Of a stretch of DNA of 64,000 nucleotides, positions 14,446 through 58,995 are shown in pieces. The notes beneath the pieces were generated by a model. That model was not told the DNA's origin. It ran no database searches and saw nothing but the letters and a program-made list of their open reading frames with translations. The DNA lies in the NCBI GenBank assembly GCA_964472075.1, contig CAYYIY010000001.1:150670-214669 (forward strand), given 5' to 3'. Position 1 is the stretch's first letter. Each line of letters opens with the position of its first letter. Source of the stretch: an uncultured bacterium. GTDB taxonomy: Bacteria; Muiribacteriota; Ozemobacteria; Ozemobacterales; Ozemobacteraceae. Made by a program: the position numbers and the translations under genes.

Positions 14446-14460
14446 GCGGCGGCGAGGCCC

Positions 14461-15160: not shown

Positions 15161-15189
15161 TTGATAAGAAATTCCGCCGGCGGTATGCT
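15161..15189 (+). promoter_or_regulatory. Sigma70-like promoter for the sigma-54 activator gene
   Basis: TTGATA, then a 17-nt spacer, then TATGCT, about 40 nt upstream of the ATG at 15229. It sits in the AT-rich divergent intergenic region 15079..15228. Confidence 0.35.
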
Positions 15190-15228
15190 GAACCACGTAA
15201 TTGCGATTCTTGCCACATCCGGACATCC

Positions 15229-16869
15229 ATGTATGGAGCGACATCAATGGGGGTGACATCTGCAACAATGCCGTCACGATTGCTGCTGCCCCACTTTCCC
15301 GAGCTGGTGATTCACCTGCAACCGCAGGGGCCGGTGGTGGAGCAGTTACCACCCTGGCTGGCCGATCTTCTCACCGGCCAGGAAACCGGTGAACCCAGCC
15401 AAGGGTTTCAAACGCTGGCCCAACGTCTGCCCGGCCTCTCGGAACTGGTTGAAAGCGCAGCTTCACAGGGGCAGCCGATCACCGGGTATCAAAGCGAGCT
15501 TACTGACGCCTCAGGCAATCTGCAACGACTGGTACTCGACGCGTATCCCCAGGTGCTGGCGGACGGTTCCCGCTCGGTGCGCGTCAGTGTACAGGCTTTT
15601 CCCGACCGGGTCGCGGTCGACCTTCCCGATGGCGGAGCATGGCACGGCATCGTGGGTCGCACGGCCCCCATGCGCAAGGTTTTCAACAAGATTCGCCTCT
15701 ACGGAGCCGTGACTGCCCCAGTGCTGGTGACCGGCGAAACCGGGTCCGGCAAGGAAGGCGTGGCTCAAGCGCTTCATCAGGTCAGTGCCCGGCGCTCCGG
15801 CCCGTTCGTCGCCGTCAATTGCAGTGCCATCTCGGAAAACCTCTTCGAAAGTGAACTGTTCGGGCACGAAAAGGGTTCATTCACCGGAGCCCTGCGAACG
15901 CACAAGGGGCGGTTCGAGCGAGCGCACGGCGGCACACTGTTCCTCGATGAGATCGGCGACATTCCCACCGCGTTTCAGGCCAAGCTGTTACGGGTTCTCG
16001 AGACCGGCACCCTCGACCGCGTGGGCGGCGAGCATCCAGTTCAGGTCGACGTTCGCGTGGTTGCCGCCACCAACCGGCCGCTCGAGGAAGATGCCCGCCT
16101 GAACCGTTTCCGTGCCGACTTGTACTATCGCATCAGCGCGCTGCAGATTCACCTGCCGCCATTGCGAGAGCGCGTCGAGGATATTCCCGATCTTGTTCAT
16201 CATTTCATCAGACAGCTGAACGAAAAGTACCAGCGCCGCATTGCGGCGCTTACGCCCGAAGCGCTGCACCTGCTGCAACAGTACTGGTGGCCGGGGAATG
16301 TGCGCGAACTGCGCAATCTGATGGAGCGACTGTTTGCCGAGAATCAAAGCGATGTCATCGGTCTGCGATCGCTGAAAGACTGGTATGAAGAGCGAGTGCA
16401 GGCGGTGCGCAACGGTGTGGCCTACGATCCGCGCGTCACGGCGCTGCCCTGGCAGCAGCCTATTCCTTTGGGCATGGAGATCCAGCAGGCCACGACCCCC
16501 GCCGGAACTCTCAACAGCCGAAACGGTGACGCACCGGCCAACGGCCGGAACTCATCAGGAGTTCGTACAAATACAAACAGTCGTGACTCAGCTCGAGAAA
16601 CGGTTTTGATGCCTGGAGAAGAAAACTGGGCCAGCGATCGCGCCCGGCCGATCAATGTCGTTCGTTCGTCTGACAGCGGCGCCGGCGGTTCTCGGTTGCC
16701 GCCGATGTCACCCGCGTCAAAGACGGCTGATCTGACGGTAGATCAGGTCAAGCAGGCAATCACCGCGGCTCGCGGCAACATGACGCAGGCCGCTCGGACT
16801 CTCGGCATTCACAAGGCGACTCTGTATCGCTTTCTGAAAGCTCACAACCTCACCCGCGACTCGCTTTAA
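15229..16869 (+). CDS. Sigma-54-dependent transcriptional activator (unknown N-terminal sensor, AAA+ core, Fis-type HTH)
   Basis: VLVTGETGSGKEGVAQALH, GSFTGA (GAFTGA variant), GGTLFLDEIGD, and a C-terminal HTH QAARTLGIHKATLYRFLK. There is no receiver domain. The internal ATG was chosen because nt 15082-15228 are AT-rich and non-coding in character. Confidence 0.8.
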   Translation: MYGATSMGVTSATMPSRLLLPHFPELVIHLQPQGPVVEQLPPWLADLLTGQETGEPSQGFQTLAQRLPGLSELVESAASQGQPITGYQSELTDASGNLQRLVLDAYPQVLADGSRSVRVSVQAFPDRVAVDLPDGGAWHGIVGRTAPMRKVFNKIRLYGAVTAPVLVTGETGSGKEGVAQALHQVSARRSGPFVAVNCSAISENLFESELFGHEKGSFTGALRTHKGRFERAHGGTLFLDEIGDIPTAFQAKLLRVLETGTLDRVGGEHPVQVDVRVVAATNRPLEEDARLNRFRADLYYRISALQIHLPPLRERVEDIPDLVHHFIRQLNEKYQRRIAALTPEALHLLQQYWWPGNVRELRNLMERLFAENQSDVIGLRSLKDWYEERVQAVRNGVAYDPRVTALPWQQPIPLGMEIQQATTPAGTLNSRNGDAPANGRNSSGVRTNTNSRDSARETVLMPGEENWASDRARPINVVRSSDSGAGGSRLPPMSPASKTADLTVDQVKQAITAARGNMTQAARTLGIHKATLYRFLKAHNLTRDSL

Positions 16870-17028
16870 CAGACACTGCCGCGCTTTAACCGATGCTCTC
16901 GTCGGCGGTATTCCCGTCACTTCTTCAGCCGTTCGTCAGCGACAGTCCGGTGAATGTGGAGTTGGAAAAAGAAACTCCTACCCGCAAACGATCATCAGCA
17001 ATCGATGCTCGAACAAAACGAAGATGAC

Positions 17029-27059: not shown

Positions 27060-27171
27060 ATCCTATTCCTTTCGTGGTTTTAGAAGAGTGGAATGACAGA
27101 TCTTTGGGGTCATGGTGCGTGAAATTCCCTTCTCCGTCAAGGGATATCTTCCGGGGAAGGAATCTTTTTCG

Positions 27172-27177
27172 TATAAT
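27172..27177 (+). promoter_or_regulatory. Candidate -10 box (TATAAT)
   Basis: Exact TATAAT lies 45 nt upstream of the ATG at 27223, which is preceded by GGAGG. No good -35 was found. Confidence 0.3.
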
Positions 27178-27222
27178 GAGAAATACAGTGCGGTACACAA
27201 CCGCATCTCTGGAGGTATTCGC

Positions 27223-29292
27223 ATGCATAGCATCATTCGGCGGGCCGGAACTCTGATTCCGGCGTTGCTGGTTGTTCTGCCGGTCACGTTGTTCGCCTGG
27301 GGACCGATGACGCATCTCACGGTCAATCAGCGAGCGTATGAACAAGCTGTGCGCGAGTTCGGCAATCATCTGGCGATTCCGCGCGAGCTGGCCGACGATT
27401 TCATCGGCGGCGGACCCTGCCCCGACATCAAGTCGCAGAGCGGCGCGTCATTTCCGTACAAGTTTCACAACGACCCCGATACGGTCGTACGCATGATCGA
27501 GCTGGCGAAAACCGACAGCCGCTTCGGGCAGGCCGACGTGGTCATGGCGCTCGGCTGGGCCGGTCATGTGTTCGGCGAAGTCTGGACCGCCCACGCCGAC
27601 GACGGCTACGCCAACAACAAGGTGACCATTCCGGTCGCGCAGAGTACCGGCATCAACCATCAGATCAACGAATTGTGCCTTGATCTGGTCATGTATCGAC
27701 GCAACCGCGAATCGCTGGCCCGCAAACACCTCGCCATTCCCGTCAGGCTGGTCGAAGCGGCGATGGCCGGAGAACGTGAGAAAGACCCCGAATCGAAGAT
27801 CATGACGGCTGCCGAGATCAAGGGCGCGGCGAGCAAGTTCCTGCCGACCGTCGTCGGCGTGCGGGTCATCGGCGAATATCTGATGCGCGAGCGCCCCGAC
27901 CTGCTCGATGAAATGGAAGAGTTTTTCAGCGACAGTGACGAGCAGATCAACAGCAGCGTCGACAACGTGCTGCGTCTGCTCAAAGAGCACGGCATGATGA
28001 ATGCGAAGAACGTGGTCAAGAGCCTCGATTCGCGCGAAAAAGTGAAGCTCGCGCTCGAAGGCAGTCTGTCGAGCAAGTTCAAAACCTGGGCGCTGTCAGC
28101 ACTCGGACGGGTTCTGCAAAACGACGGAGCCGGCGACATCTTCACCGTGCTGGCCTATCACATGGTCAAGGGCGCCCTGTTCACTCCGGCAACCCACGAT
28201 GTCTTTCTCGACAAGGCCAAGAGCATGGGCGCGGCCAGCGTCTGGGGCAACCCGAATCACAGCCGCATCGTCACCCGCTTTACCGAAGGTTTGCTCAGCC
28301 GCGGCGATCTGACGTTTCCCGAAATCATCGCCTGGGCCATGGAAGGCTTCGAAGCCGGAAATGCGGAAAAGCAGAAACAGCTGGCTCAGTTCAAGAAAGC
28401 CGGTCTGAATGCACGCGGCCGCAAGCCGGTTTCCTCCGGGCAGGTGCTCGAAGCCCTGAAGGAGGTCGAGCGGGTGGAAGCGCTTCAGCGCGAATGGCCG
28501 TGGTTCTGGCCGTGGCGACCAAGCGAACTGCGAGTGGCCCAGGCGCGGGAACACGCCGGTCGCCTGCTCGCCTATCATATCGAAGACAGCGGCCTGGCCG
28601 GAGCCGCCGGCCTGCGCCTGCAGGCGTTCCAGCAGAAGAATCAGCAGCTGCGCAGCGCGATCTGGTCGTATCGCATGACCGCCTGGTATCAACCCTTCAA
28701 AAAATGGGACCAGAACAAAAGCCTGGCCGAAATTTCCGCGAGCTACGGAGCGGAAAAAGCCTTCTTCGCTGAGCTGATGCGCGTGAAGATGCAACTCGAC
28801 GCTCAGGGCGACGACCCGGCGAAGCTTGCCGCTCTGCAAACCGATACGCAACAACGATTACGAGAAACCGAGTATGCGCTGCAGAACGCCAGGGCGCAGC
28901 TCGACAGCCTGCCGGTCTGGAACCTGATCAAGCGCGATCAGAAGAAGGACGAGATCAAGAAGCTCGAGCAACAGCGCCAGGATCTGCGCTCAAGACTCGA
29001 CGTGTTGCAGGCTCTGGCGGCCGGAACGCCCGCCGCCGCGACAACCGAATCGGGGTCTGCTGCAGCCGCGTCCAAGGCGCCTGACGTCGATCTCGAACTC
29101 GGACGCGGGGTGACGCTCGCCGATGCTCAGAAAAAGTACGAGTCAGCGTATGCCGAATATGCCGCCATTGCTGTGCAACCGAACAGCGATACCTCGACCG
29201 TGAAAGCAGCTCTCGAGCGTCTCGAACTTGCCCGAAAGATTCGCCAGTCGGTCATCGCCCGCCTCGAAGCCGAGAAAGCCGCCGGCAACTGA
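27223..29292 (+). CDS. Zinc-dependent phospholipase C / S1-P1 nuclease superfamily domain protein with long C-terminal coiled-coil
   Basis: After the signal peptide the mature N-terminus WGPMTHLTV resembles P1-nuclease WGALGHATV. FHNDPD and LGWAGHVFGEVWTAH match the His/Asp zinc-ligand motifs of the fold. The C-terminal ~300 aa are Q/A/L/R-rich heptad-like sequence. Confidence 0.6.
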   Translation: MHSIIRRAGTLIPALLVVLPVTLFAWGPMTHLTVNQRAYEQAVREFGNHLAIPRELADDFIGGGPCPDIKSQSGASFPYKFHNDPDTVVRMIELAKTDSRFGQADVVMALGWAGHVFGEVWTAHADDGYANNKVTIPVAQSTGINHQINELCLDLVMYRRNRESLARKHLAIPVRLVEAAMAGEREKDPESKIMTAAEIKGAASKFLPTVVGVRVIGEYLMRERPDLLDEMEEFFSDSDEQINSSVDNVLRLLKEHGMMNAKNVVKSLDSREKVKLALEGSLSSKFKTWALSALGRVLQNDGAGDIFTVLAYHMVKGALFTPATHDVFLDKAKSMGAASVWGNPNHSRIVTRFTEGLLSRGDLTFPEIIAWAMEGFEAGNAEKQKQLAQFKKAGLNARGRKPVSSGQVLEALKEVERVEALQREWPWFWPWRPSELRVAQAREHAGRLLAYHIEDSGLAGAAGLRLQAFQQKNQQLRSAIWSYRMTAWYQPFKKWDQNKSLAEISASYGAEKAFFAELMRVKMQLDAQGDDPAKLAALQTDTQQRLRETEYALQNARAQLDSLPVWNLIKRDQKKDEIKKLEQQRQDLRSRLDVLQALAAGTPAAATTESGSAAAASKAPDVDLELGRGVTLADAQKKYESAYAEYAAIAVQPNSDTSTVKAALERLELARKIRQSVIARLEAEKAAGN

Positions 29293-34405: not shown

Positions 34406-34445
34406 AACCGCCGTCGAAAAGAGTTTTCGACGGCGGTTTTCTTTT
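34406..34445 (+). terminator. Rho-independent terminator of argF
   Basis: Perfect 15-bp stem AACCGCCGTCGAAAA-gag-TTTTCGACGGCGGTT, followed by TTTTCTTTT. Confidence 0.85.
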
Positions 34446-36002: not shown

Positions 36003-36035
36003 AGGCGAAGTCGCACTCGGCTTCGCCTTTTTCCT
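36003..36035 (+). terminator. Rho-independent terminator after the M14 gene
   Basis: AGGCGAAG-tcgcactcgg-CTTCGCCT 8-bp stem followed by TTTTTCCTTCTC. Confidence 0.7.
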
Positions 36036-36186: not shown

Positions 36187-38415
36187 ATGAGTTCGTCGTT
36201 CACTCATCGATGCCGTTTCTGCCTGCTATGGCTGTGTCTCGCATGTTTCACGGGAAGCCTTCAGGCGCAGGAACTGCAGGTCTGGGCCATGGGTGCCGAG
36301 GGCAAGCTGATTCGCGAAATGGCCGACCGGTTCGAAGCCGCGAACCCCGGCGTGAAAGTTGTCACCCAATCGATCTCATGGGGGACAGCCCACGAAAAGC
36401 TGGTAACGTCGATTGTCGGAAACATGGAGCCTGATGTCTGCCAGCTCGGCACCACCTGGATGGCCGAGTTTCAGACGATGGGCGCTCTCGAACCAATCGC
36501 CCCATGGCTGGCTTCTTCGAGCATCAGAATGACCGAGTTCTTTCCGGCATCGCTCGATTCGAACCGTTTCAACGGCGAGTTTTTCGGAGTTCCGTGGTAT
36601 GTCGACACCCGCGTTTTCTTTTATCGTACCGATCTTGCATCGGCCGCAGGCTTTTCACGCTTCCCCGAAACCTGGACGGAACTGAAAACCCTGGCGCACA
36701 ACCTGAAACGACTCAAGGCCGAGCGCGGCATTCCCGGGTTCGTTTACGGCCCAGGCATTGGCGACTGGCAGATGCTGCTGATGTATTTCTGGCAATGCGG
36801 CGGCGAGATACAGCCTGAGTTATGGCCCGGCCCGATCATGGGCAACGATGTTCTGCGCGAAGCATTCGAACACATCGTGTCGTTCTACGACGAAGGGCTG
36901 TCACACCGCGAGCAGGGCGGCGAGCAGGAGCTGATCGCCGGTACGGAGTCGGGATATTACCCGATGTATGTTTCCGGCCCATGGCTGGTAAACGAACTCG
37001 AAAGCCGGCCGGGCTTGAAGGGGCGCTGGACAACCGCTCCTCTGCCGCGGCATCGGCGCGGCACCTCGTTTCTGGGTGGGTCGAATCTCGTGATGTTTCG
37101 CGGCTCAAAGCTCAAGCCACTCGCCTGGAAATTCATCGAGTTCATGAGCACCCCGGAACATCAAGCTCTGTGGTATGAGATCTCACGCGACCTGCCGGCT
37201 CGACAGACCGCATGGGATCTTCCCGCTTTGGCGGAACGTCCGCATCTCGATGCCTTTCGACGACAACTGCTCGATGCGCGCGCCCCGCCCGCCCTGCCGG
37301 AGTGGGAAGCCATGGCGGAGCGTATCTCACATCGGTATACCGAGATCATGCGCGGCGGACGCCCGATCGACGAGGGAATCGCGTTACTGCAGGAAGACTG
37401 CGCCGCCATCATCGAGCGCAGCGGGGTTCGCCCGGGCATTCGCTTTTCGTGGCCGCTGGCAATTGGTCTGATGCTGGTTCCCGCCGTTCTGGCCTTTCTT
37501 TATCTGCACACCGATCCGGCCCGACCTCCCTCTGAACGCCTGCGCTCGCGGGCCTGGCCGTTTCTTCTGCCGGCCCTGCTGCTGATTCTGGCTTTTCGTT
37601 TTCTGCCCGGCGCCGCCTGTCTGGTTACCAGCTTTACCAACTGGGACATTTACGGAATACAGGACCCCGGCCGCGTGCGCTTCATCGGCCTCGACAATTT
37701 TCTGGCTCTCGCCGAAGATCCCGCGTTCTGGTATAGCCTGCGCAATATTCTGGCGTTTGTCCTGGTCGGCGTCCCATTGAATATTGTCACGGCGCTGATC
37801 ATCGCCTTGGTTCTTGATCAACCGTGCCGGTCACTCAAAGGGGTTTCGCGAACCCTGTTCTTTCTCCCCACCGTCACCACGCTGGCTGCCGTTGCTCTCG
37901 TCTGGCAGCGTATCTACGCCGTTGAAGGCGGATTGTTGAACCAACTCTGCCTGTGGGTCGGGCTTCCGGTCGTCAACTGGTTGAACCATTCGTGGTTGGC
38001 CCTGCCGGCACTGATCACCATGACTGTCTGGAAAGGCTTCGGCCTGAATGCCGCGGTCTTTCTCGCCGCGCTGCAGAACGTGCCGGAAGAATTGTACGAG
38101 CAGGTCGAGATCGACGGCGGCAACTGGTGGCACAAGATACGTCACGTAACCCTGCCGTTTTTACGGGGCAGCATGGTGTTTGTCTTCGTCACGACGACGG
38201 TGGGAACCTTTCACGTGTTTACCGAACCTTACATGATGACGGGCGGCGGCCCGCTTTACGCAACGTTGACGCCGGTACTTCACTTGTACCAGAATGGGTT
38301 TCAGTTTTTCCGACTCGGGTATGCGTCGGCAATCACCTGTACTCTGAGCGTTGGGGTTATCGCGTTCAATCTGCTGCAGCAGGCCATGCGACGCCGTTGG
38401 GGAGGCACGCCTTGA
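36187..38415 (+). CDS. Fused ABC transporter: family-1 extracellular solute-binding protein joined in-frame to a MalF/UgpA-type permease
   Basis: The N-terminal ~430 aa carry a signal peptide and a sugar-binding-protein fold. The C-terminal ~300 aa contain six TM helices and the EAA loop EELYEQVEIDGGNWWHKIRHVTLP. There is no stop between the two parts. Confidence 0.7.
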   Translation: MSSSFTHRCRFCLLWLCLACFTGSLQAQELQVWAMGAEGKLIREMADRFEAANPGVKVVTQSISWGTAHEKLVTSIVGNMEPDVCQLGTTWMAEFQTMGALEPIAPWLASSSIRMTEFFPASLDSNRFNGEFFGVPWYVDTRVFFYRTDLASAAGFSRFPETWTELKTLAHNLKRLKAERGIPGFVYGPGIGDWQMLLMYFWQCGGEIQPELWPGPIMGNDVLREAFEHIVSFYDEGLSHREQGGEQELIAGTESGYYPMYVSGPWLVNELESRPGLKGRWTTAPLPRHRRGTSFLGGSNLVMFRGSKLKPLAWKFIEFMSTPEHQALWYEISRDLPARQTAWDLPALAERPHLDAFRRQLLDARAPPALPEWEAMAERISHRYTEIMRGGRPIDEGIALLQEDCAAIIERSGVRPGIRFSWPLAIGLMLVPAVLAFLYLHTDPARPPSERLRSRAWPFLLPALLLILAFRFLPGAACLVTSFTNWDIYGIQDPGRVRFIGLDNFLALAEDPAFWYSLRNILAFVLVGVPLNIVTALIIALVLDQPCRSLKGVSRTLFFLPTVTTLAAVALVWQRIYAVEGGLLNQLCLWVGLPVVNWLNHSWLALPALITMTVWKGFGLNAAVFLAALQNVPEELYEQVEIDGGNWWHKIRHVTLPFLRGSMVFVFVTTTVGTFHVFTEPYMMTGGGPLYATLTPVLHLYQNGFQFFRLGYASAITCTLSVGVIAFNLLQQAMRRRWGGTP

Positions 38416-39215
38416 CGACATCGGGACGCGCCGTCGCACCTCTGCACACCGCCGGCTGGCTGGTGTTTCTCGCGTTCAGCCTGCTCGTCACGCTGCTGCC
38501 CTTTCTGTGGATGTTTTATCATTCCTGCAGCGAGATCCAGGCAGGGTTTTCGGTCGATGCGTACCGGCGACTGTTTGCTCAAGCGACGATTCCGAGGCAT
38601 TTTGCGAACAGCATCATCTATGCCGGCGGGCTGACCGCACTTTCGCTGATTTTCAACACGCTGGCCGGGTTCGCCTTCGCCTGCCTGCAGTTTCCGCGTC
38701 GCGAGCGGCTGTTCACGCTGCTGTTGATGACCATGATGATCCCGAGTCAGATCACGCTGGTGCCGATGTTTCTGTTTCTCAAGTTTTTCGGCATGCTCAA
38801 CAGCTTTTCGGGGTTGATTATTCCAGGGTCGGCGCATGTCTTCGGCATCTTCATGGTGCGACAGTTCCTGCGCGACCTGCCGGAAGAAGTCTTCGAGGCC
38901 GCCCGCATCGACGGCTGCAGCGAGTGGCATCTGTTTCGACACATCGTGCTGCCGCTCAGTCGCCCGATTCTCGCCACTCTGGCGGTTATCAGCTTCATCG
39001 GTGCCTGGAACGAGTTTCTCTGGCCGCTCATTGTCATGCAGAAACAGGAAATGTACCCGTTACCCGTAGCCTTGACGATGTTAAACAGCCAGTATTACGA
39101 CGACATGGGCCTGATGATGGCCGGCGCCGTCGTCACCATGGTTCCCGCCCTGCTGGTCTTCGCCTTCGCCCAACGCCACTACATCAAAGGCCTCACCCGC
39201 GGCGCCGGAAAATAG
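38412..39215 (+). CDS. ABC sugar permease (MalG/UgpE-type)
   Basis: TTG start overlaps the upstream stop, with GGAGG 6 nt upstream. EAA loop EEVFEAARIDGCSEWHLFRHIVLP. Length is 268 aa. Confidence 0.75.
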   Translation: MTTSGRAVAPLHTAGWLVFLAFSLLVTLLPFLWMFYHSCSEIQAGFSVDAYRRLFAQATIPRHFANSIIYAGGLTALSLIFNTLAGFAFACLQFPRRERLFTLLLMTMMIPSQITLVPMFLFLKFFGMLNSFSGLIIPGSAHVFGIFMVRQFLRDLPEEVFEAARIDGCSEWHLFRHIVLPLSRPILATLAVISFIGAWNEFLWPLIVMQKQEMYPLPVALTMLNSQYYDDMGLMMAGAVVTMVPALLVFAFAQRHYIKGLTRGAGK

Positions 39216-39243
39216 AATACGTTCATTCCTGTAATCAAGGGCG

Positions 39244-39302
39244 ACAAATCTAAACCCAAACTTTAGATTTCGGCTACAAATCTAAAGGTCCACTTTAGAT
39301 TT
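39244..39302. repeat. Two tandem copies of a perfect AT-rich palindrome ACAAATCTAAA-N7-TTTAGATTT
   Basis: 39246-39254 pairs with 39262-39270, and 39278-39286 pairs with 39294-39302. The copies are 32 bp apart, in the AT-rich spacer between the ABC permease stop and the 5'-nucleotidase start. Confidence 0.8.
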
Positions 39303-39393
39303 TCGGTATTTCTTTGCCCATTCGCCGTTTTGGTTTTTGTTGCGAGGGCGACGGTGGGCGCGTAAACTGCGGGGGAGGAGCAGATCGAGACGT

Positions 39394-41094
39394 ATGCGTA
39401 TTCGAAATAGCCTGATCGACGTTCATGAAGCGAACTGTCGCAACGAGCATGACTCGAGCGATGACGGAACGCGCGTCGGCCGAGTGACGAAAGCACCGCG
39501 GCACCCGAAATACGGTCATTTCAAACCACTTCTGCTGACGGTCGTGTTTCTGGTGCTGGCAACGGCCTGGAGCACAGCCGGCGAGTCCCTGCGCACGCTG
39601 ACGATTCTGCATACCAACGATGTCCATTCGCACCTTCTGCCGTTCGATCAGGTCGATTACGGCAAGAATGTCGGCGGTGCCGCGCGGCTGTATGAACTGG
39701 TGAAAAAGATCGCCTCGGAAACCCCGAACTGCCTGCTTCTCGATGGCGGCGACCTGTTTCAAGGCACACCGTTCTATTCTTCGTTTTTCGGTGAAGTGGA
39801 AACCCAGGTCGCGGATCTGATCGGCTACACCGCCACCGTTCTCGGCAACCACGATCTCGATGACGGCCTGGCCAATGTGCGCAAACAGTATGCATCCTCT
39901 TCCGTTCAGCTGCTCTGCGCGAACGTTTTTGACGAAAGTACCGGTTCGCCGACGTTCACCCCATGGCTGATTGCCGATCGAGGCGATATCAAAATCGGCG
40001 TCATCGGCGCTATCGGTTCGGAAGCCTGGAGCGTCATCTCGCGCAAACGACAGCGGGGCATGGTTTTTCAGGACCACGAGCCGATCGTTGCCAGCATTGC
40101 CGCATTTCTGCGCCCACAGGTCGACCTGGTCGTCTTTCTTTCTCATGCGGGCTACGACTCCGATCTCGTCTATGCGGCGCAATCTCCCGACATCGATATC
40201 ATCGTCGGGGGTCACACGAACAACCTCACGCCGCAACCGGTTCTCGTAAAACACCTGCCAAGAGCAGACGCGAAGCAGAGCCGGAACGGCCTCAACGGCA
40301 CCATTGTCGTGCAGGCCTTCAAGTGGGGGGTGTTTCTCGGTCGACTCGATCTGATCCTGCGGCCCGATGACACCATCGCCACGTATTCCGGTCACCTGTC
40401 GAAGATCGATGCTTCCATTCCCGTTTCAGACATCAACCCGGTTGCCCGGCTCGTCGATTCATACCACGAGCGCATCAAAGCCATGACCAGCCAGCTGATC
40501 GGTCACTGCAGCACTGACATGCTCTACCCTGACGAGGAAAAGCACCTGAAAGTCTTTCCGATCGGTGTGTGGGCTTGCGAGGCCATGCGCGAGTTCGTCG
40601 GAGCCGATTTCGGCATCATCAACTCGGGAACGATCCGCGACGGCATCGCTTCCGGGCCGGTCACCATGGGAACGCTGCTCAGCGTTCTGCCCTTCGACAA
40701 TACGATCGTGACCTACCGCATGAAGGGTCGTGATATCGAAGCCATGCTTTCATACATCGCCGCCAATCATGGCAGAATCACCGGCTATCAGTATGCCGGT
40801 CTCGGGTTCACCGCCATCGTCGGGTCGGGCACCGTGCAGGGGCTGACGATTGGGGGCTTACCGGTCGACCCCGAGCGCATGTATCATGCCGCCACCATTT
40901 CGTATCTCGCTGACGGAAATCAAAACGGCCTCATCCTTTTCAAGAACGCCGTCGATCGCCACGACACCGGTTTTCTGATGCGCGATGTGGCTATTGAACG
41001 GCTTCGCAAGTCACCGCAACTAGTACCACCGTCAGCCGACGGAATCCGTTTCGTCACCACCAACACCGCCGGCCAGACAACCGGTACGCATTGA
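39394..41094 (+). CDS. Bifunctional metallophosphatase / 5'-nucleotidase (UshA family), secreted
   Basis: LTILHTNDVHSHL, GGDLFQG and GNHDLDDG calcineurin-like motifs, plus a C-terminal 5'-nucleotidase substrate domain. GGGAGGAG lies upstream of the chosen ATG. Confidence 0.8.
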   Translation: MRIRNSLIDVHEANCRNEHDSSDDGTRVGRVTKAPRHPKYGHFKPLLLTVVFLVLATAWSTAGESLRTLTILHTNDVHSHLLPFDQVDYGKNVGGAARLYELVKKIASETPNCLLLDGGDLFQGTPFYSSFFGEVETQVADLIGYTATVLGNHDLDDGLANVRKQYASSSVQLLCANVFDESTGSPTFTPWLIADRGDIKIGVIGAIGSEAWSVISRKRQRGMVFQDHEPIVASIAAFLRPQVDLVVFLSHAGYDSDLVYAAQSPDIDIIVGGHTNNLTPQPVLVKHLPRADAKQSRNGLNGTIVVQAFKWGVFLGRLDLILRPDDTIATYSGHLSKIDASIPVSDINPVARLVDSYHERIKAMTSQLIGHCSTDMLYPDEEKHLKVFPIGVWACEAMREFVGADFGIINSGTIRDGIASGPVTMGTLLSVLPFDNTIVTYRMKGRDIEAMLSYIAANHGRITGYQYAGLGFTAIVGSGTVQGLTIGGLPVDPERMYHAATISYLADGNQNGLILFKNAVDRHDTGFLMRDVAIERLRKSPQLVPPSADGIRFVTTNTAGQTTGTH

Positions 41095-41479: not shown

Positions 41480-41758
41480 CTAGCGTCTGACCGTGAAGTT
41501 TCTCGATGAGAGCTTTTCACAGCTATCATCAAGCAGAATCTGCATGTCATCCACCCGCGAAAAGCGAGGGCCGCGGCGCAGCTCCTCGAGAAATTCCGTT
41601 ATCAACGACTCGGGTCCTTCCGCATACGCCTGCACGGAACCATCATCGAGATTTTCCACCCAGCCGACCAGGCCGCGCTGCTCAGCCTGACGCACGGTAA
41701 AGTAGCGAAAGCCCACGCCCTGCACCATTCCACGCACGATAACTTGTACTTTTCTCAT
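41480..41758 (-). CDS. acyP: Acylphosphatase
   Basis: VRGMVQGVGFRYFT...GWVENLDDGSVQAYAEG matches acylphosphatase signatures. Length is 92 aa. Confidence 0.85.
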   Translation of the reverse strand: MRKVQVIVRGMVQGVGFRYFTVRQAEQRGLVGWVENLDDGSVQAYAEGPESLITEFLEELRRGPRFSRVDDMQILLDDSCEKLSSRNFTVRR

Positions 41759-50325: not shown

Positions 50326-53300
50326 CTACCTCGACACTTCCTCAATCTGCGACCAGCCGCGCGGGGCATATTCTCTCACACTCTTCAGACGACAGGCAAG
50401 AAAAGCCCCGTAGTCGAAGGCACGCAGATATTCGACAATTGCAGCGCAGGTCAGACTCGGGCCGTGCGTGACTGCATCGCGCAAACGACGATTGGCTATT
50501 TCCCACGTGTATTGCAGCCAGCGGGGTTTGAGCGTGACCAGGGGCAGGCAATACGTTGTGGAAGCGGCACCGCGCAGCCAGTCAACCACGCGGCAACCAT
50601 CTGTGGACCTCAGACCGAACACCCCGAGCGACGGATCGACAAACCACCAACGATCCCCCTCACTCAGCTTGATCTCCGCAACCCAGTGCTGAGTATGACG
50701 GCTGTATTGAGCCGCTGGAGAAAGCTCGTAGTCCAGATGCAACAGTCGAATGGATAGTCCGAGATCGTTCAGGATGTCAGCCAGCAAAAAGGTCTCCTGA
50801 TAACAATACAACTCGAGAGGAGCACTCGCCTGAAACAGTCTTTCGCGAACTTGTGAACGAGCCAGATCTCCCTCGTCGTGATGAAAGATCTCATGCGTCC
50901 GGGTTCCGAAGTCGACACGACGACTGTACCAGTCACAAAACTCGAGAAGTCTCTGCATTTCAGAATTGTTTGAATTCAGAAACACACGCAGAGGAGATGG
51001 CAGACTGTCGGCGTCGATCAATCGCACATACGGATTCATTTCCTGCCGAGGTGAGCGCATCAGAGGCCGCGAGAGTTGAGTCCGGGCCTCCGTGGCCACA
51101 CTCATGACAGGGAGATAGAACCAGACAGCATTCCCGGTGGTGCTATCCATGCCGACCCCAAGCAAGGCAGGGAGCGGGGTTGATACCGACGCCGCATTGC
51201 CGACAGCCGGCAACCACGACTCAGCCGGCCAGGCATGAAACACCGACGAAGGAACCACTGGAAGCAGCGGGTCGGGTTTCAGATCATCAGGCCACGTCAC
51301 AACCTTCACGCCGGTGACGGTCGACGTCCGAAGCATGATCGGCGTCGATCGCTCGGTGACGTGCTCTCCGGCAAACAATCGGTGACCGAGCGCCGGACCG
51401 CACAGTGCAGCGAGCATGAACAGACCGAGGAAAGTGATGCCCTCCCCGCCTTTTCCATCAAGCGATCGGCGCGGGTCTCGCTGAAACGGAGAAAACATCC
51501 AGAGACTGAGCACTCCGGCCATCAAAGGCCATGTCGCGGCCAGGACACGCCACCCGCCATCGAGGAAGATGAACGGCACAAACGCCAGCATGCATCCCAG
51601 AAGCATTGTCCAGAAAACAATCTCACGTCGACACTCCCGCATCGCAAGGGCGAATCCGAACCATAGACCAGTACCAATGGCGAGCAGCAAGACAAAACGA
51701 GAAGAGATCACCTCACCGATTGGCAGTGTCGCCAGAAGAATGGTCCGCAGAAACAGAAACAGATCGCCCATGAATTCTTTTCCTGAGCGGCGCAGATACT
51801 CCAGTGCCAGATCAGGCTGTCGCCGCAGAGATTCACAGCCACGTTCCCAGAGGAATTGCGCCCGTTCTTTTTCGGAGGGTCTTTTTTCCAGTTCCGACTT
51901 GTACTTTTCACGAACCTGCACCCAGGTCAGATTTTCAGCCATACCGCAGAAGGTGTATCCAGCGTTGGAATGCGGCAGATTGTCGGCACCACCGTAAACC
52001 CGAACGAGGAGCAACGGAAACAGTAGTCCCATCATGGTTCCTGCCAGCAGGCCGAGAAGCATTCTGCGAGTCCAGTCTCCCCGCCACGTGCTCCAGACAG
52101 CGTATAGAACGGGACCGACCAGCACCGTTATCGCGCCAACGCGTGCCTGCATTGCCAACGCCAGCCCCAGACCCGCGGCGAACTGCGCCAACGTTGAAAC
52201 CGACCAGGTTCCATTCAACAGCAGGCGCAGAGCGACACACCCGAGAGTCATTCCCAGAGCCTCTGAAAGACAGGTTCCCATAAAGCACTGCGCGTACGCG
52301 AGACACAGCGCAACACATCCGATACCCGTCCAGACTCCGTACCGGCGGCGCAGCCCGTCAGCCAGCCAGAAAACGCTTACTGCCAGCAGCACCACTTGCA
52401 TCAGTGTCGCCAGTTCCAGTCTCAGACCCGTCACCGCCAGACGAGCGGCAAGAAACGCGGCATTCAGCGGCCGGCGTACGTTCCACTCGTTCAAAGTGCC
52501 CTGCGCAATCAACTGATGCGCTCCGTTCAGATAACTGCGCGCATCACTGAGGGGGATATACCCCATAAAGGCGAAAGAGTACAGATCGTACCGGTGCATC
52601 GGCTCGGCGATCCCGCTCCATTGCCGAAACAGCGGCAACAGAAACAGCAGGACAGCCAGGATCAGACCCCAGCGGGCCATGCGGCGGCTCAAACCGCGCT
52701 CAGCCTTGATCCAGGCGGCTTGCTCCGCTCGCGGGCGCAGCCACCTGATCGCCCAGGCGCACCCGACCCCGCCCATCGCCCAGAGCCACAACCACCCCGG
52801 AATCTGACTGACCGTGAGGTACAGCAGATGCCGACCTCTGATCCATGCCCAGGCCTGCGTTGGAGCACAAGGAAACACCAGCGGCACGGCCAGAAACAGC
52901 ACCAGTCCTCCGATCGCGCCTGCCGCGAAAAGTGCCGGCATCAACCGACAGAATAACGGCCCCACAAGAGGAAGCGCGGTAAAGAACGCTGCCGCCAGAC
53001 TCAGCCAAAGCCCGACCGTCGCCGTTCTTTCGCTCCAGCCCGGAAGCTGTGGGCAACTTACTTCATATACCCGACCGTTGGTGCGTGGGTCACTTCCGTC
53101 CGAGCTGGAGAAAATCAGATCCTCGTTCCAATGCGAGTATCTGCCACCTCCTTTTGAGCGGATGTCGGCATGCAGGCTGTGCGCCATCGACAGCGAACGC
53201 CCGCTCTCAAAGAGTTCCAGGCGACTCCAGCGGGGAAAGCGTGCGCTGTCTCCCGTTCCTGTCATGGATGCGATACCACGATAGATAAACGCCTGCGAAT

Positions 53301-53442
53301 CGGTGGTTTCCGGTCTTATCTGTGACACATCGAGGGTGAGTCGAACCCTCGTGACCCGCTCCGGATCATACTGAAAACGCATACAGATGGTCGCCAGCAC
53401 CAGTAACAGGACAACCAGCGCAACGCGTGTCGGAACGTTCAT
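50326..53442 (-). CDS. Large polytopic membrane protein: N-terminal unclassified domain, >12 TM helices, C-terminal transglutaminase-like domain
   Basis: The N-terminal TM is followed by ...FESGRSLSMAHSLHADIRSKGGGRYSHWNEDLIFSSSDGSDPRTNGRVYEV. A long hydrophobic core follows. The C-terminus CYQETFLLADILNDLGLSIRLLH...HTQHWVAEI...WWFVDPS fits the Cys-His-Asp transglutaminase-like pattern. Confidence 0.6.
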   Translation of the reverse strand: MNVPTRVALVVLLLVLATICMRFQYDPERVTRVRLTLDVSQIRPETTDSQAFIYRGIASMTGTGDSARFPRWSRLELFESGRSLSMAHSLHADIRSKGGGRYSHWNEDLIFSSSDGSDPRTNGRVYEVSCPQLPGWSERTATVGLWLSLAAAFFTALPLVGPLFCRLMPALFAAGAIGGLVLFLAVPLVFPCAPTQAWAWIRGRHLLYLTVSQIPGWLWLWAMGGVGCAWAIRWLRPRAEQAAWIKAERGLSRRMARWGLILAVLLFLLPLFRQWSGIAEPMHRYDLYSFAFMGYIPLSDARSYLNGAHQLIAQGTLNEWNVRRPLNAAFLAARLAVTGLRLELATLMQVVLLAVSVFWLADGLRRRYGVWTGIGCVALCLAYAQCFMGTCLSEALGMTLGCVALRLLLNGTWSVSTLAQFAAGLGLALAMQARVGAITVLVGPVLYAVWSTWRGDWTRRMLLGLLAGTMMGLLFPLLLVRVYGGADNLPHSNAGYTFCGMAENLTWVQVREKYKSELEKRPSEKERAQFLWERGCESLRRQPDLALEYLRRSGKEFMGDLFLFLRTILLATLPIGEVISSRFVLLLAIGTGLWFGFALAMRECRREIVFWTMLLGCMLAFVPFIFLDGGWRVLAATWPLMAGVLSLWMFSPFQRDPRRSLDGKGGEGITFLGLFMLAALCGPALGHRLFAGEHVTERSTPIMLRTSTVTGVKVVTWPDDLKPDPLLPVVPSSVFHAWPAESWLPAVGNAASVSTPLPALLGVGMDSTTGNAVWFYLPVMSVATEARTQLSRPLMRSPRQEMNPYVRLIDADSLPSPLRVFLNSNNSEMQRLLEFCDWYSRRVDFGTRTHEIFHHDEGDLARSQVRERLFQASAPLELYCYQETFLLADILNDLGLSIRLLHLDYELSPAAQYSRHTQHWVAEIKLSEGDRWWFVDPSLGVFGLRSTDGCRVVDWLRGAASTTYCLPLVTLKPRWLQYTWEIANRRLRDAVTHGPSLTCAAIVEYLRAFDYGAFLACRLKSVREYAPRGWSQIEEVSR

Positions 53443-55518: not shown

Positions 55519-57471
55519 TCAGGGTCGCGACAGTGGCAACGACGGTCCTTCCCAGAAGCGGCCGATGTCTCGCTGGTACAAAGAGAGAATGATGCGACGG
55601 GAACCCCCGCGAGCGTGCAGCAGACGCAACAACGCGTAGGTGTCCTGCCGCAGGCGCGGTCCGCTGCAGGCCTGCTGCAGTTGTTGCTCAAGTTTTTCGA
55701 CCATCGGCGGCTCAACTTTGCCGCTCGCCATGGCGATGAAACGTCGCAGGTTCAGTCGATCGGAACTCAGATGCAGGATCGTATCGACCAGCCCCTGAAA
55801 TCGTCCGAGCAGATCGAGATCCGGACCCTCGATCAGATGAGGGCGAGGCCAGGTCAGATTGCCGAAATGAGCGGAAATGAAGACGGTAAACTGCTGCGGG
55901 ATCGCCTGCTGACGCAGCTGGCCCAGATACTCAACGGTCAGATCGTCCGGGTTCATCGACTCGATGAATACGACCTTTCCAGCAGGACCGGGCGGTAGAA
56001 GTTTGAGTAACTCAACGATGTCGTCAGGGACGGTGAGTCGCACGGCACGATCACTGCCGCGCACATAGAGCGAATCGGGAAACACGCCGCAGGTCGTTTC
56101 GAGCGTCTGTTGCCACTTCTGACGAGCCGCCTGAGCTTCCGCCCCGTTGCCGACCGTGCGCATGATGTTTTCCGCCGTCGATTGTCGAGTGACCCAGGCG
56201 GTGGCCCGCAAAGTCAGCTCGGCCATTGTGTGTTCACGTGACAGGTACAATACCGGAAGACGACCAGCAGTCTGCAAGGCAAAAGCCTGCATCCAGGCCG
56301 CTTTTCCTTCTTCGCGACCCCCGACGATCAGGTGCAGGCCGCGCTGCACAAACCCACCACCTAAAGCTTTGCCGAGTTCGACGCCGGGGGCAACCACCAC
56401 GGAAGCATGTGACGGCAGTCCGGAAACGAGTTCGGGCGCTTCGAGTTTCAGGGGACGGAACTGTCGAATTTCGCGCGTCGACAGGGTGGGTAGGGGCGCG
56501 GCCGGCTGAGACAAAGGAGCCGCTGTCGAAGGAAGAGAAGCCGGAGTTGCCACGGGGGCCGGTGCTGAAGCTCGCGTTTCTCCCACGCTTGCCGCCAGAC
56601 CGGCAAACACTTCCTTCAGTTTCTGAACCGGCTCTTTGGTGGATTCGAGAAACTTGATCCAGGTGCGAACTTCCTTGAGACACTCGTCCAGAGTTCTCTT
56701 TTTGCCGCAGTAATCGGAGAAAGCGGCGGGGCCATAGGCAAAATGGGACTGGCTGACCCCCACTTTCGGGCGGTGCAGCCCAGGGTGAATACTCCCCGGC
56801 ACGAGAACGGGAGTTGTCGCACTCGCCATCTCAGGCAGGATGGTTCGGTCCGTGGTTTTCATCAGGCGGCGATCACCACGTTTGATGCCGGCGATGCGCC
56901 CGATCAACGCCCGATACATGCGTCCGAGTTGCCGATGCCCGCCGCAGCCGAACACACCCGGGTGAATCTCGATCGCAATTTCATCGGGCGTGGCCAGCAG
57001 GAACATGGCATCGTTACTGATGCCGAGCGTTTTCAGACTTTCGATGAATCGGGTCGTATCGTCGTAGACTGCCTGAAATCCGAAGACTTCCTGATTCGGA
57101 CGATAAGGCCTGCCGTCGACCACCACATGAGTGTGTTCCCTGGCAAGCAGCTGCAGAAGCTCATCCTGACCCGGCAGTTCCGGTACTCTTTTCCCCTCGA
57201 CTTCGAGATGGATCTGCAGCCCTTCATAGCCGCATTCCTCGAGTAACAGATCAGAGGCGCGACGAATCGCATGCACCACGGTCATCGGCCCGGAAAGGAC
57301 GATGCTTTCTTCGTTGAAAGCCTGTTGCAGCTGTTCCGCATTTTCGGTTTCCTCGAAAAAGTAGGCGGAACGGTACAAGCCCTCAGGAACGGCTTTCAGC
57401 GCATCGCTCAGCCCTTTCAGGGGTTTGATGCCCGAAGCAACTCCCGACGCGGAAAGTATCAGCGCATTCAT
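55519..57471 (-). CDS. Hypothetical protein with C-terminal RecA/KaiC-superfamily domain (degenerate Walker A)
   Basis: The C-terminal GLHLIVGGREEGKAAWMQAFALQ...LYLSREHTMAELTLR resembles KaiC/DnaB-C/RadA folds, but Walker A is GGREEGKA. There is a Pro/Ala-rich linker, and the N-terminal ~270 aa are unrecognised. Confidence 0.45.
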   Translation of the reverse strand: MNALILSASGVASGIKPLKGLSDALKAVPEGLYRSAYFFEETENAEQLQQAFNEESIVLSGPMTVVHAIRRASDLLLEECGYEGLQIHLEVEGKRVPELPGQDELLQLLAREHTHVVVDGRPYRPNQEVFGFQAVYDDTTRFIESLKTLGISNDAMFLLATPDEIAIEIHPGVFGCGGHRQLGRMYRALIGRIAGIKRGDRRLMKTTDRTILPEMASATTPVLVPGSIHPGLHRPKVGVSQSHFAYGPAAFSDYCGKKRTLDECLKEVRTWIKFLESTKEPVQKLKEVFAGLAASVGETRASAPAPVATPASLPSTAAPLSQPAAPLPTLSTREIRQFRPLKLEAPELVSGLPSHASVVVAPGVELGKALGGGFVQRGLHLIVGGREEGKAAWMQAFALQTAGRLPVLYLSREHTMAELTLRATAWVTRQSTAENIMRTVGNGAEAQAARQKWQQTLETTCGVFPDSLYVRGSDRAVRLTVPDDIVELLKLLPPGPAGKVVFIESMNPDDLTVEYLGQLRQQAIPQQFTVFISAHFGNLTWPRPHLIEGPDLDLLGRFQGLVDTILHLSSDRLNLRRFIAMASGKVEPPMVEKLEQQLQQACSGPRLRQDTYALLRLLHARGGSRRIILSLYQRDIGRFWEGPSLPLSRP

Positions 57472-57481: not shown

Positions 57482-58930
57482 TCAGCGAAGTTCTCCCAGC
57501 TGCAAAGCCGCTGCTATGCGACGAGGAATGTCACTCAGGTTCATGACGCCCTGAAACAGCGTCTGATGAGTCCCCATCGCGTGCAGGAACATGTCTTCAC
57601 ACCCGTGACCGTTTGTCGCCATCTCGTGCAGCGACTTGCCGGTATCGAGAAACGAGATACCCAGCTTGCCCCAGACGAGATCGCCGAGACGCATTTCGAA
57701 TTCCTCGCCCGCAGGTACAAGTTTCAGTGAAGCAATTTCAGCATCAGAAAAGGTAAGAGATGGATACGATTTTTTCAGTTCATCCGCGAGACTCGCGGGA
57801 TCGGCGGCGATGCGACGTGCCAGCATTTTGGTCGACACCGCCGACTTGCGAAACGTATCTTCCTGAAATCGCTCGGTCATGTGCAGACCGCCGGTCGAGT
57901 GGTCGGGCACCATGACGAGAAGCGTATCCGGATGCGTGCGCACGAATTCCTGCAATACCCGAACCGTGGCATCCATTTCGCGAATCTGCTCGACCAGCTC
58001 CGCAGCATCGTGAGCATGGGAGAGGGCGTCAATCTGGCCGGCTTCGACCATCAGCAGAAAACCCTTCGGATGCGCGGACAGGATTTTCAATGCTGACGCC
58101 GTCATCTCAGGAAGATCAGGCGTTGATTTGCAGTCAGGTTCGAACGTGAACGGCATGAACGAATCAGAAAACACCGCGAACACTTTCTCAACCTTGTCGG
58201 TCAGGGCCTGCACCAGATCCTGGCGTGACTGCACGACACGATACCCCTGCTGCTGCACGTCCGCGAGCAGATTCCGTCCTTTCGGCTGTTTGCCTCCCTG
58301 TTCGACGCTCTGAAACCAGGCGCGGCCACCGCTCATCAGCAGATCGATACCCGAAAACACGATCTGCTCAGCCAGCTTTGCCTCTTCATCGCGGTGATTC
58401 ACGTGACCGGCAAAGGCGGCCGGGGTCGCATGCGTCAACCGAGTGTCCGAGATGATCCCCGTCTTCATGCCCTTGTTCCGGGCCAGATCCATGATCGTGA
58501 TCAACTGATTGCCGGCGGCATCAACTGATACCTTGTTGAACAGGCCGATCTTTCCCGTAGCCAGCGTCGAAGCCGCCGCGGCCGAATCATTCACGGTCGA
58601 GTCGGCCGCAAAGCCGATGACCCGGCCGACAATGGGAAAACGATCGGTCTCGAGTTTTCCCTGGCGACCGACGATCGCGTCACGAGACAACCGCAGGGCA
58701 GGAGCGCCCAGTCCGTCGGCAATCAGCAGAATCGCATTGCGAGCCGGACGCGCCAAGACCTTGAGCCGGCGCTGCAGGGCCTCATCAAGCGTGATCGGCT
58801 TTGAATCAACCGGAGTGATCAAATCGTTCGCCGGAGGTTTTGCCGGGGTAACGACCGGGGTTTCCTGGGCTGCAAGCATTGCACAGCCCGCCATAATCAA
58901 CAGCACAGTCAGCAGGAGTCGACGCATCAT
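57482..58930 (-). CDS. Alkaline phosphatase (PhoA family), secreted
   Basis: Signal peptide MMRRLLLTVLLIMAGCAMLAA. LLIADGLG and DSAAAASTLATGKIG match the PhoA active-site Ser region. C-terminal HDAAE and PDHSTGG motifs. Confidence 0.75.
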   Translation of the reverse strand: MMRRLLLTVLLIMAGCAMLAAQETPVVTPAKPPANDLITPVDSKPITLDEALQRRLKVLARPARNAILLIADGLGAPALRLSRDAIVGRQGKLETDRFPIVGRVIGFAADSTVNDSAAAASTLATGKIGLFNKVSVDAAGNQLITIMDLARNKGMKTGIISDTRLTHATPAAFAGHVNHRDEEAKLAEQIVFSGIDLLMSGGRAWFQSVEQGGKQPKGRNLLADVQQQGYRVVQSRQDLVQALTDKVEKVFAVFSDSFMPFTFEPDCKSTPDLPEMTASALKILSAHPKGFLLMVEAGQIDALSHAHDAAELVEQIREMDATVRVLQEFVRTHPDTLLVMVPDHSTGGLHMTERFQEDTFRKSAVSTKMLARRIAADPASLADELKKSYPSLTFSDAEIASLKLVPAGEEFEMRLGDLVWGKLGISFLDTGKSLHEMATNGHGCEDMFLHAMGTHQTLFQGVMNLSDIPRRIAAALQLGELR

Positions 58931-58995
58931 TCCATCCTCCTCGGGTGTATGCCTGATTCTAGCACACCCCCTCCGCTCTTGTATCTTCGTGTGTT

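Follow-up and report, generated by a model that had tools for sequence, protein, structure and literature searches.

Between a sugar ATP-binding cassette (ABC) transporter operon and a gene for a 5'-nucleotidase, the genome of an uncultured bacterium of the family Ozemobacteraceae (GenBank assembly GCA_964472075.1) carries two perfect, AT-rich palindromes in tandem. We examined this element within a 64,000-nucleotide stretch of contig CAYYIY010000001.1 (positions 150,670 to 214,669), hereafter called the window. Proteins encoded here have their best matches in Candidatus Riflebacteria / Ozemobacteraceae. A first-pass annotation of the same DNA had described the pair as two copies of AAATCTAAA-N7-TTTAGATTT repeated with a period of 32 bp, and our analysis confirms this architecture as well as the location of the site, for which Pfam supports the identity of the genes on both sides. 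The annotation also spoke of a 62%-GC genome, a figure to be corrected to a G+C content of 58% for the window. The element begins 29 nt past the stop codon of the second permease gene of the operon (39215) and lies 92 nt ahead of the ATG of the 5'-nucleotidase gene. Its first dyad has the same arms and the same spacing as a dyad that adjoins genes of the defence-type system PDC-S01 in many phyla, and our interpretation is built on this association.

Positions 39240-39310 read, in order, GGCGAC AAATCTAAA CCCAAAC TTTAGATTT CGGCTAC AAATCTAAA GGTCCAC TTTAGATTT TCGGTAT. The element is composed of four identical 9-mers in alternating orientation (39246-39254, 39262-39270, 39278-39286 and 39294-39302), with a strict arm spacing of 16 bp and a unit period of 32 bp. 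Because the middle arm pair, TTTAGATTT-CGGCTAC-AAATCTAAA, is as good a palindrome as either outer unit, we regard the element as four evenly spaced arms and not merely as two hairpins. A pattern search that allowed up to three mismatches found no further copy of the dyad elsewhere in the 64-kb window, and a wider scan of the window (spacers of 3 to 12, up to four mismatches, any arm orientation) added only two distant matches at chance level. Shuffled sequence averages 0.01 sites, and in 100 shuffles a count of two or more never arose. The two 32-bp units differ from each other at six positions, none of which falls within the 18 arm positions (P = 0.0033). Because all six differences reside in the loop or flank, constraint on the arms is favoured and a simple recent duplication is disfavoured.

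The genes with which this palindrome associates encode proteins composed of AAA_14 and DUF4143 domains, which match the PADLOC models for PDC-S01, a candidate anti-phage system, with E values from 1e-51 to 1e-104. The DUF4143 domain (COG1373) is predicted to be a PD-(D/E)XK nuclease (PMC3424549), and PDC-S01 appears in the literature as a very abundant but unvalidated defence candidate in which an ATPase is fused to a PD-(D/E)XK domain (PMC12988326, PMC13356809). A survey from 2026 ranks it as the fourth most common defence-type system of prokaryotes, without experimental validation or mechanism (PMC12988326).

Our survey of the dyad was an 18-base pattern scan of species-representative genomes, which yielded at least 120 loci, and all fractions given below are samples among the matches listed. 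The exact dyad is spread over many phyla and includes genomes of 60-71% GC; 32 of the 120 matches come from genomes with at least 50% GC (up to 71% in L011), where no more than 0.015 sites per Gb are expected by chance. An AAA_14-DUF4143 gene, recognized by tblastn and a locally built hidden Markov model, adjoins the exact dyad in 34 of the 120, and the frequency of this adjacency differs among GC classes (1/29 below 35% GC, 20/59 at 35-50% and 14/32 at 50% or more). Gene-linked dyads occur in Acidobacteriota, Bacteroidota, Verrucomicrobiota, Bacillota, Actinomycetota, Pseudomonadota and Bdellovibrionota. Furthermore, 25 open reading frames (ORFs) of 100 aa or more have their start no farther than 15 nt from a dyad, and 17 of these are PDC-S01 genes. 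Among the matches listed, only the PDC-S01 gene itself travels with the motif across phyla. Clustering of the genes beside the other dyads revealed no second recurrent family except Fic (two Acidobacteriota loci) and the orthologous metH genes of Draconibacterium. In a neighbour-joining tree the members that carry the exact dyad are scattered over the whole PDC-S01 family.

At gene-oriented loci the right arm is separated from the ATG by only 0-15 nt, commonly 5-7, which leaves no space for a Shine-Dalgarno sequence (for example TTTAGATTT-gtcat-ATG, TTTAGATTT-ctcac-ATG and TTTAGATTT-gcaggg-ATG); in defining gene-linked copies we allowed a spacing of up to about 110 nt where a second dyad is present. 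Given this short distance, the mRNA is probably leaderless. The oriented alignment takes the form TTGAC-A, 17 nt, TAGATT, 5-6 nt, ATG. Specifically, the five bases of the left flank together with the first A of the left arm spell TTGACA, TTGAGA or TTGCCA in many loci outside the Bacteroidota, and at PDC-S01 loci TAGATT in the right arm (form TAnAnT) has its last base 7-8 nt ahead of the A of the start codon. In Bacteroidota, TTTAGATTTG supplies a -7 box, TAnnTTTG. We infer that the palindrome spans the core promoter of a leaderless mRNA and is overlaid by the site for a symmetric protein. In this normal setting, the left flank and the first base of the palindrome would form the -35 hexamer, the right arm would hold the -10-like hexamer of either type, and a symmetric protein, for which the PDC-S01 product is the best candidate, would sit on the promoter.

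The presence of such a symmetric DNA-binding protein is indicated by compensatory changes that keep the dyad symmetry. The arms of L187 (AAATTTAAG/CTTAAATTT) carry a double compensatory change, and other symmetric variants are found in L017 (AAAAGTAAA/TTTACTTTT) and L116 (AAATCTAAG/CTTAGATTT). The stems often lengthen outward with covarying flanks (gtgag...ctcac, ccttga...tcaagg, ccctgc...gcaggg), and they also lengthen inward, where loops of the type GTnnnAC yield AAATCTAAAGT-n3-ACTTTAGATTT. Orthologues of the L016 protein in Terriglobales, with 75-88% identity, all preserve the order TTGA(C/G/T), arm, N7, arm, (g/c)tcat, ATG, with TATATT, TAAATT or TAGATT as the -10-like string; their arms drift yet are largely symmetric. 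The neighbours of the Terriglobales orthologues in L182-L187 are wholly different (Lactamase_B, DUF1223, dTDP-sugar isomerase, dinB), which implies that the PDC-S01 gene moves within this order.

We also considered 12 plasmid-borne PDC-S01 genes that were chosen without reference to the motif. Most of this sample carries a different, subfamily-specific palindrome that ends 0-6 nt before the ATG. Because these genes have palindromes of their own, the layout in which a palindrome abuts the start codon is general, and AAATCTAAA represents one widespread form. Five of the 12 (L140, L143, L145, L148 and L149) have a gene for a tyrosine or serine recombinase/integrase directly beside them, and another, L139, adjoins a gene for a WYL-domain protein. 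A blastn search of plasmids with the window element itself returned no match, and a scan of viral contigs gave 31 matches in AT-rich phage contigs, none of them beside PDC-S01.

Which protein might occupy the site? The N-terminal half of DUF4143 shows concordant sub-threshold matches, all within one stretch, to the ArsR, GntR, MarR, HTH_11, AbiEi and Crp-type helix-turn-helix models, a hint that a winged-helix module resides between the ATPase and nuclease parts of the protein. A sequence search of the PDB with a PDC-S01 protein found no match. We propose the PDC-S01 protein as the best candidate for a binder of its own promoter dyad.

The 32-bp tandem layout of the window is likewise found among gene-linked relatives, where it recurs at three places (L126/L128, L017 and L060) that represent a Legionellales-like and Bdellovibrio subtype. 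A metagenome scan for three arms returned 13 stretches, all AT-rich and none Riflebacteria-like, which included L126 and L128, and these two carry the same four-arm, 32-bp arrangement upstream of orthologous AAA_14 + DUF4143 genes. At these loci (L126 4325-4381 and L128 5746-5802) the paired loops are reverse complementary (CCGCTAC/GTAGCGG in one, GCACTAC/GTAGTGC in the other) and covary between the loci, and the 57 nt form one perfect palindrome with 25-bp arms, which is not so in the window. In L060 (1447-1890), from a metagenome-assembled genome (MAG) of Legionellaceae, two dyads with the loop GTGGCAC stand in tandem at a distance of 32 nt ahead of a PDC-S01 pseudogene, in which about 48 N-terminal codons run to a stop and about 80 C-terminal codons follow a large internal deletion. 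This locus is an intermediate between the gene-linked and orphan states. In three other lineages, 30-45-nt direct copies of the palindrome, with similar or identical loops, stand on either side of the PDC-S01 gene in the manner of a cassette with repeated ends.

Approximately two thirds of the listed loci have no adjoining PDC-S01 gene, and many of these belong to AT-rich genomes and are ordinary terminators rich in A+T. Orphan dyads in GC-rich genomes reside 2-100 nt past the stop codons of unrelated genes, as in the window. One follows a DUF262-HNH gene in Comamonas, and another follows metH in three Draconibacterium species, where the palindrome is kept with a compensatory change in the flank. 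In the syntenic loci L015, L016 and L187, the distal dyad is positioned 27-30 nt past the dinB stop codon, compared to 29 nt past the permease stop in the window. Among the matches listed, each contig gave a single 8-kb block containing the dyad, chromosome-scale contigs included. The exception within a block is L046, from a Cyclobacteriaceae MAG, which has two orphan dyads about 6 kb apart (1610 and 7695) and no PDC-S01 gene. Its two copies share identical loops and flanks (cttgaAAATCTAAAgttgaacTTTAGATTTtcaaggtt), hinting at limited dispersal of the palindrome itself.

The permease-nucleotidase gene order of the window is kept in only two contigs that we found, L122 and L121, whose second permease is 89% and 80% identical to that of the window, respectively (87% at the DNA level for L122). 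Both lack the dyad before the 5'-nucleotidase gene. All three genomes keep a promoter-like string followed by a Shine-Dalgarno sequence and the ATG. The dyad region of the window aligns with L122, the closest relative, at approximately 64% identity over 40 nt; 3 of 500 shuffles score as high, and the counterpart arms in L122 (CCTTAATTT, AAGTCCAAC and CTGAGAACG) are degenerate and non-palindromic. This alignment suggests that the element may predate the split from L122, with the arms held perfect only in the window lineage. Homologues of the 5'-nucleotidase with about 51% identity (L123-L125) reside in other gene contexts and, being non-syntenic, were unusable for this comparison.

Because the window has no AAA_14-DUF4143 gene and no ORF after the dyads, we consider the window pair to be an orphan of the PDC-S01 palindrome family. 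It shares the 9-7-9 arms and the 32-bp tandem arrangement with the gene-linked members and lacks their adjacent gene. The hexamer TAGATT is present in its right arms and, owing to the symmetry, can also be read from the minus strand of arms 1 and 3, and the flanks GCGAC and GCTAC share only GAC or AC with the TTGAC of the family. GCGACA sits 17 nt before TAGATT, and its counterpart at dyad 2 is GCTACA (39273-39278). The top strand of the window is the nearer one to the family consensus, with GAC or AC before each left arm and AC before each right arm, and the right flanks do not mirror the GAC/AC pattern of the left side. This asymmetry would suit a module whose orientation is, or once was, in the plus direction. 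That the site is still serving is favoured by its flawless arms, by the freedom of its spacers and by the probable age that the L122 alignment implies. Our preferred interpretation, which we advance tentatively and at slightly less than an even chance, is that the pair is an orphaned PDC-S01 promoter/operator module that may still offer a double, high-affinity protein site and possibly weak promoter activity. A PDC-S01 cassette would have brought in the module or left it behind, and the pair would now act at the DNA level as a site for a protein of the PDC-S01 type whose gene resides elsewhere in the genome.

Several observations count against this interpretation. GCGACA matches TTGACA at only four of six positions and GCTACA at three, and so the -35 comparison makes for a weak inference. 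There is no ORF behind either dyad in the window, and a tblastn search of the 64-kb window with the L126 protein gave a best E value of 8.8, consistent with the absence of an AAA_14-DUF4143 gene; a partner that acts in trans on the window pair is an assumption. Homology to L122 consists of a single 40-nt alignment. For the putative binder, the helix-turn-helix matches fall below the Pfam thresholds, and the structure that AlphaFold predicts for a PDC-S01 protein from Terriglobales is too poor to use, having a pLDDT of 57 that drops below 50 in the middle third. Furthermore, the exact dyad accompanies proteins down to about 22% identity, which is unusual for an operator recognized by the protein that it controls. 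Two loci of Acidobacteriota (L009 1406 and L077 8) have the exact dyad 60-140 nt ahead of a gene of the Fic family, possibly SoFic-like, whose product has a helix-turn-helix region at its C terminus, and so the binder need not be the PDC-S01 protein. Finally, the fractions behind the family association are samples among at least 120 matches.

The first-pass annotation had proposed that the dyads form a cooperative operator for a dimeric, phosphate- or nucleoside-responsive repressor that controls the 5'-nucleotidase gene and a wider regulon. Part of this proposal survives, in that a double dyad bound by protein on one helical face is still the likeliest arrangement: the arms are constrained and the spacers free, the RNA hairpins are weak, and the 32-bp layout recurs in L126/L128, L017 and L060. 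The dyad symmetry and same-face spacing fit cooperative binding, and phosphatase-type genes do reside nearby, as had been pointed out (an acylphosphatase gene at 41480-41758 and PhoA at 57482-59062, both on the minus strand). The phosphate or nucleoside content of the proposal, however, we consider very improbable. L121 and L122 keep the promoter of the 5'-nucleotidase gene and not the dyad, no second dyad locus exists in the 64 kb, including at phoA and the acylphosphatase gene, and across phyla the motif tracks PDC-S01 and not phosphate or nucleoside genes. From the position of TTGCGA-N17-TAAACT, which scores below the threshold of a consensus promoter scan, transcription of the nucleotidase gene likely starts near 39377, which puts the dyad centres at approximately -87 and -119, at least 39 bp upstream of the -35 element and not over the promoter, where a repressor usually binds. 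Neither does a classical transcription-factor gene flank the locus; the only DNA-binding regulator gene found in the window is that of a sigma-54 activator (15082-16869), 24 kb away. PhoB/PhoP-type regulators recognize repeats of about 7 bp in direct orientation, which have a period of 11 bp, overlap the -35 element and are shared by several phosphate-starvation genes. We rejected a Pho box because the window repeats are inverted, with 16-bp arm spacing, stand at least 39 bp upstream of the -35 element, and have no copy at phoA. That same activator raises the thought of an upstream activator site for a sigma-54 promoter, since two dyads 32 bp apart and about 90-120 bp upstream recall the NtrC sites at glnAp2, which are 32 bp apart and lie about 100 bp upstream, and a GG-N10-GC string (GGGCGC-N5-CTGC) is present at about 39357-39372. 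This idea we find scarcely credible: the GG-N10-GC spacing is lost in L122 and L121, whereas the sigma-70-like TTGCGA-N17-TAAACT is kept, the activator gene is distant, and the cross-phylum partner of the dyad is PDC-S01 and not sigma-54 promoters.

Two other explanations deserve more weight. Perhaps the dyads are an inert scar of a PDC-S01 cassette that once resided here or nearby and whose gene has been lost, a path that is illustrated by the tandem dyads and decayed gene of L060. The gene evidently comes and goes, given that orthologues with 75-88% identity occupy differing contexts, and the window dyads have no gene behind them, are missing in L121 and are degenerate in L122. We nonetheless judge it rather unlikely that nothing but a relic is left, in that all 36 arm bases are perfect and at the family optimum in a window of 58% GC while the spacers differ. 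If the L122 alignment reflects homology, the element is older than a split marked by 87% permease DNA identity, and an AT-rich relic free of constraint would be expected to have decayed, as has happened in L122; the Draconibacterium orphans after metH, moreover, keep their palindrome in three species. A further explanation places the function in RNA, as a weak terminator or a REP-like 3' stabilizer of the ABC-operon transcript, formed either by two hairpins or by one structure pairing arm 1 with arm 4 and arm 2 with arm 3. The element does occupy the position just past a last stop codon, as do most orphan copies elsewhere. The segment 39216-39330 folds at -27.2 kcal/mol (z = -4.0), and as RNA the whole element prefers the single long structure (-17.1 kcal/mol). 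Unit 2 is followed by UUUUCGGUAUUUCUUUG, and L121 has a GC-rich hairpin just before a homologous ATTTCCTTGC tail. As had been argued from the start, however, the 9-bp AT-only stem is weak for a terminator. The stems contain no more than one G-C pair, and units 1 and 2 reach only -4.8 and -9.5 kcal/mol, compared to -25.4 and -18.0 kcal/mol for terminators in the window. A terminator scan does not call the element, whose U tract is interrupted (tail UUUUCGGUAUUUC), and a gene-linked dyad that abuts the ATG would be untranscribed if the mRNA is leaderless. Rfam yielded no match at gathering score in the window or in 17 dyad loci, and at a permissive threshold the element gave only noise (E = 3.6-4.9). 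A role at the RNA level thus seems to us quite unlikely. We also dropped a site for IHF (one mismatch to WATCAANNNNTTR), which was unsupported, and rejected a miniature inverted-repeat transposable element, as the flanks show no target-site duplication.

Coordinates of the palindromic element, its promoter-like strings, the flanking genes and the comparison loci are collected in Table 1.

Table 1. Features of the locus and of related loci (window coordinates unless a locus label is given)
Feature	Position	Strand	Remarks
Dyad 1	39246-39270	no strand	AAATCTAAA-CCCAAAC-TTTAGATTT, perfect 9-7-9 palindrome
Dyad 2	39278-39302	no strand	AAATCTAAA-GGTCCAC-TTTAGATTT; stem reaches 10 bp, 5-nt loop
Central everted palindrome	39262-39286	no strand	arm 2 + linker CGGCTAC + arm 3, 10-bp stem
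Left flank GCGAC + first A of arm 1 (GCGACA)	39240-39246	+	aligns with -35 TTGACA of gene-linked family members
-10-like hexamer TAGATT	39296-39301	+	in arm 4; same hexamer in arm 2 at 39264-39269
Promoter-like TTGCGA-N17-TAAACT of 5'-nucleotidase gene	39341-39370	+	separate from the palindromic element
Fused solute-binding protein + permease gene	36187-38415		identified by Pfam
Second ABC permease gene (BPD_transp_1)	38400-39215	+	upstream neighbour
5'-nucleotidase/metallophosphatase gene (Metallophos + 5_nucleotid_C)	39394-41094	+	566 aa per NCBI call
Promoter-like string in L122	about 1697-1726		TTGCGG-N17-TAAACT
Promoter-like string in L121	about 1286-1316		TTGTCA-N18-TAAACT
Bracketed PDC-S01 gene, L002 (Akkermansia)	3099/4343
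Bracketed PDC-S01 gene, L030 (Akkermansia)	5321/6565
Bracketed PDC-S01 gene, L067 (Paludibacteraceae)	420/1621
Bracketed PDC-S01 gene, L083 (Paludibacteraceae)	3713/4914
Bracketed PDC-S01 gene, L026 (Lachnospiraceae)	1695/3136

Some features of the wider window are recorded here in their own right. The fused gene upstream of the second permease encodes 742 aa, with SBP_bac_1/SBP_bac_8 at residues 38-354 and BPD_transp_1 at residues 574-738. It is unusual for a binding protein to be fused to a permease in this way, and no ATPase gene is visible in that operon. The GC-rich intrinsic terminators used for comparison above (34406-34438 at -25.4 kcal/mol and 36003-36028 at -18.0 kcal/mol, with stems of 15 bp and 11 bp, respectively, and clean U tracts) follow the ornithine carbamoyltransferase and M14 peptidase genes. 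A signalling gene cluster (8344-19320) encodes two GAF-SpoIIE phosphatases, the sigma-54 activator and a CHASE2-GAF-GGDEF protein. Four long ORFs have no Pfam match at E <= 0.001 (50326-53442, 27112-29292, 58996-61224 and 55519-57471, with 1037, 726, 742 and 650 aa, respectively).

The palindrome has uses beyond this locus. It offers a probable DNA ligand with which PDC-S01 could be studied by binding assays, footprinting and structural methods, it predicts that PDC-S01 expression is leaderless and self-repressed, and its gene-linked, pseudogene-linked and orphan copies mark the gain and loss of the system. For annotation, it implies that a lone AT-rich double palindrome within a GC-rich genome can be the trace of a defence module and need not be an operator of the genes that flank it at present; for this locus, the proposed link to phosphate or nucleoside regulation is removed. 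A bolder proposal, which we consider unlikely, is that the dyad is the cognate site of PDC-S01 AAA+ / PD-(D/E)XK proteins, recognized through an internal winged helix and held near one optimum across phyla, at which these proteins would shut off their own leaderless promoter. Orphan copies would in that case serve as functional targets on the chromosome, whether as decoys, as landing pads or as co-opted regulatory sites, and would not be debris. Were this so, the dyad might also be a 'self' or loading site for the ATPase-nuclease activity, or the boundary of a mobile cassette, which is conceivable because direct copies flank the gene in three lineages. Searches of the literature by motif, DUF4143, COG1373 or PDC-S01 found no paper on this palindrome, and neither this cross-phylum motif nor its orphan copies seem to have been described before.

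The arrangement can be compared with four known kinds of element. Rho-independent terminators likewise place a hairpin right after the last stop codon of an operon, and a T-rich stretch does follow unit 2. They differ in having a G+C-rich stem and a U run, whereas the window stems have at most one G-C pair and the tract is broken. REP/BIME elements, which are associated with RAYT genes, are similar in that they are palindromes just past stop codons, sometimes in pairs of alternating orientation, and the flanking of a nuclease-type gene by palindromes is seen for PDC-S01 in Akkermansia, Paludibacteraceae and Lachnospiraceae. REP elements are, however, multicopy, lineage-specific and usually GC-rich, whereas the window element is a single locus in 64 kb even at four mismatches and the dyad motif is common to many phyla; nor is PDC-S01 a Y1/HUH transposase. 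The core sites of tyrosine recombinases, with inverted arms of 9-13 bp and a spacer of 6-8 bp, resemble the 9-7-9 architecture, and both the direct copies that flank PDC-S01 in three lineages and the integrase or recombinase genes beside five of 12 plasmid-borne members recall such systems. The window locus, in contrast, has no recombinase gene, and sites 7 bp apart cannot recombine productively; our analysis yielded no evidence of strand exchange and no attL/attR pair.

A further comparison is with the C-boxes of restriction-modification systems (O_L and O_R, bound by C proteins) and with the operators of toxin-antitoxin systems. The C-boxes themselves are of unrelated sequence, of the GACT-N3-AGTC types, whereas the arms here are 9 bp long with a 7-bp gap. 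Their binder is a small helix-turn-helix protein, unlike the putative 390-aa AAA+ / PD-(D/E)XK protein considered here, and the window lacks the regulated gene. Such autoregulatory operators consist of two adjacent palindromes that are bound cooperatively and overlie the core promoter of a defence-type gene spread by horizontal transfer; many of the transcripts have little or no leader, and the cis-acting element travels with its gene. The palindrome described here would share these features. An operator that overlies the promoter of a mobile defence gene is, in this respect, a well-known kind of element.

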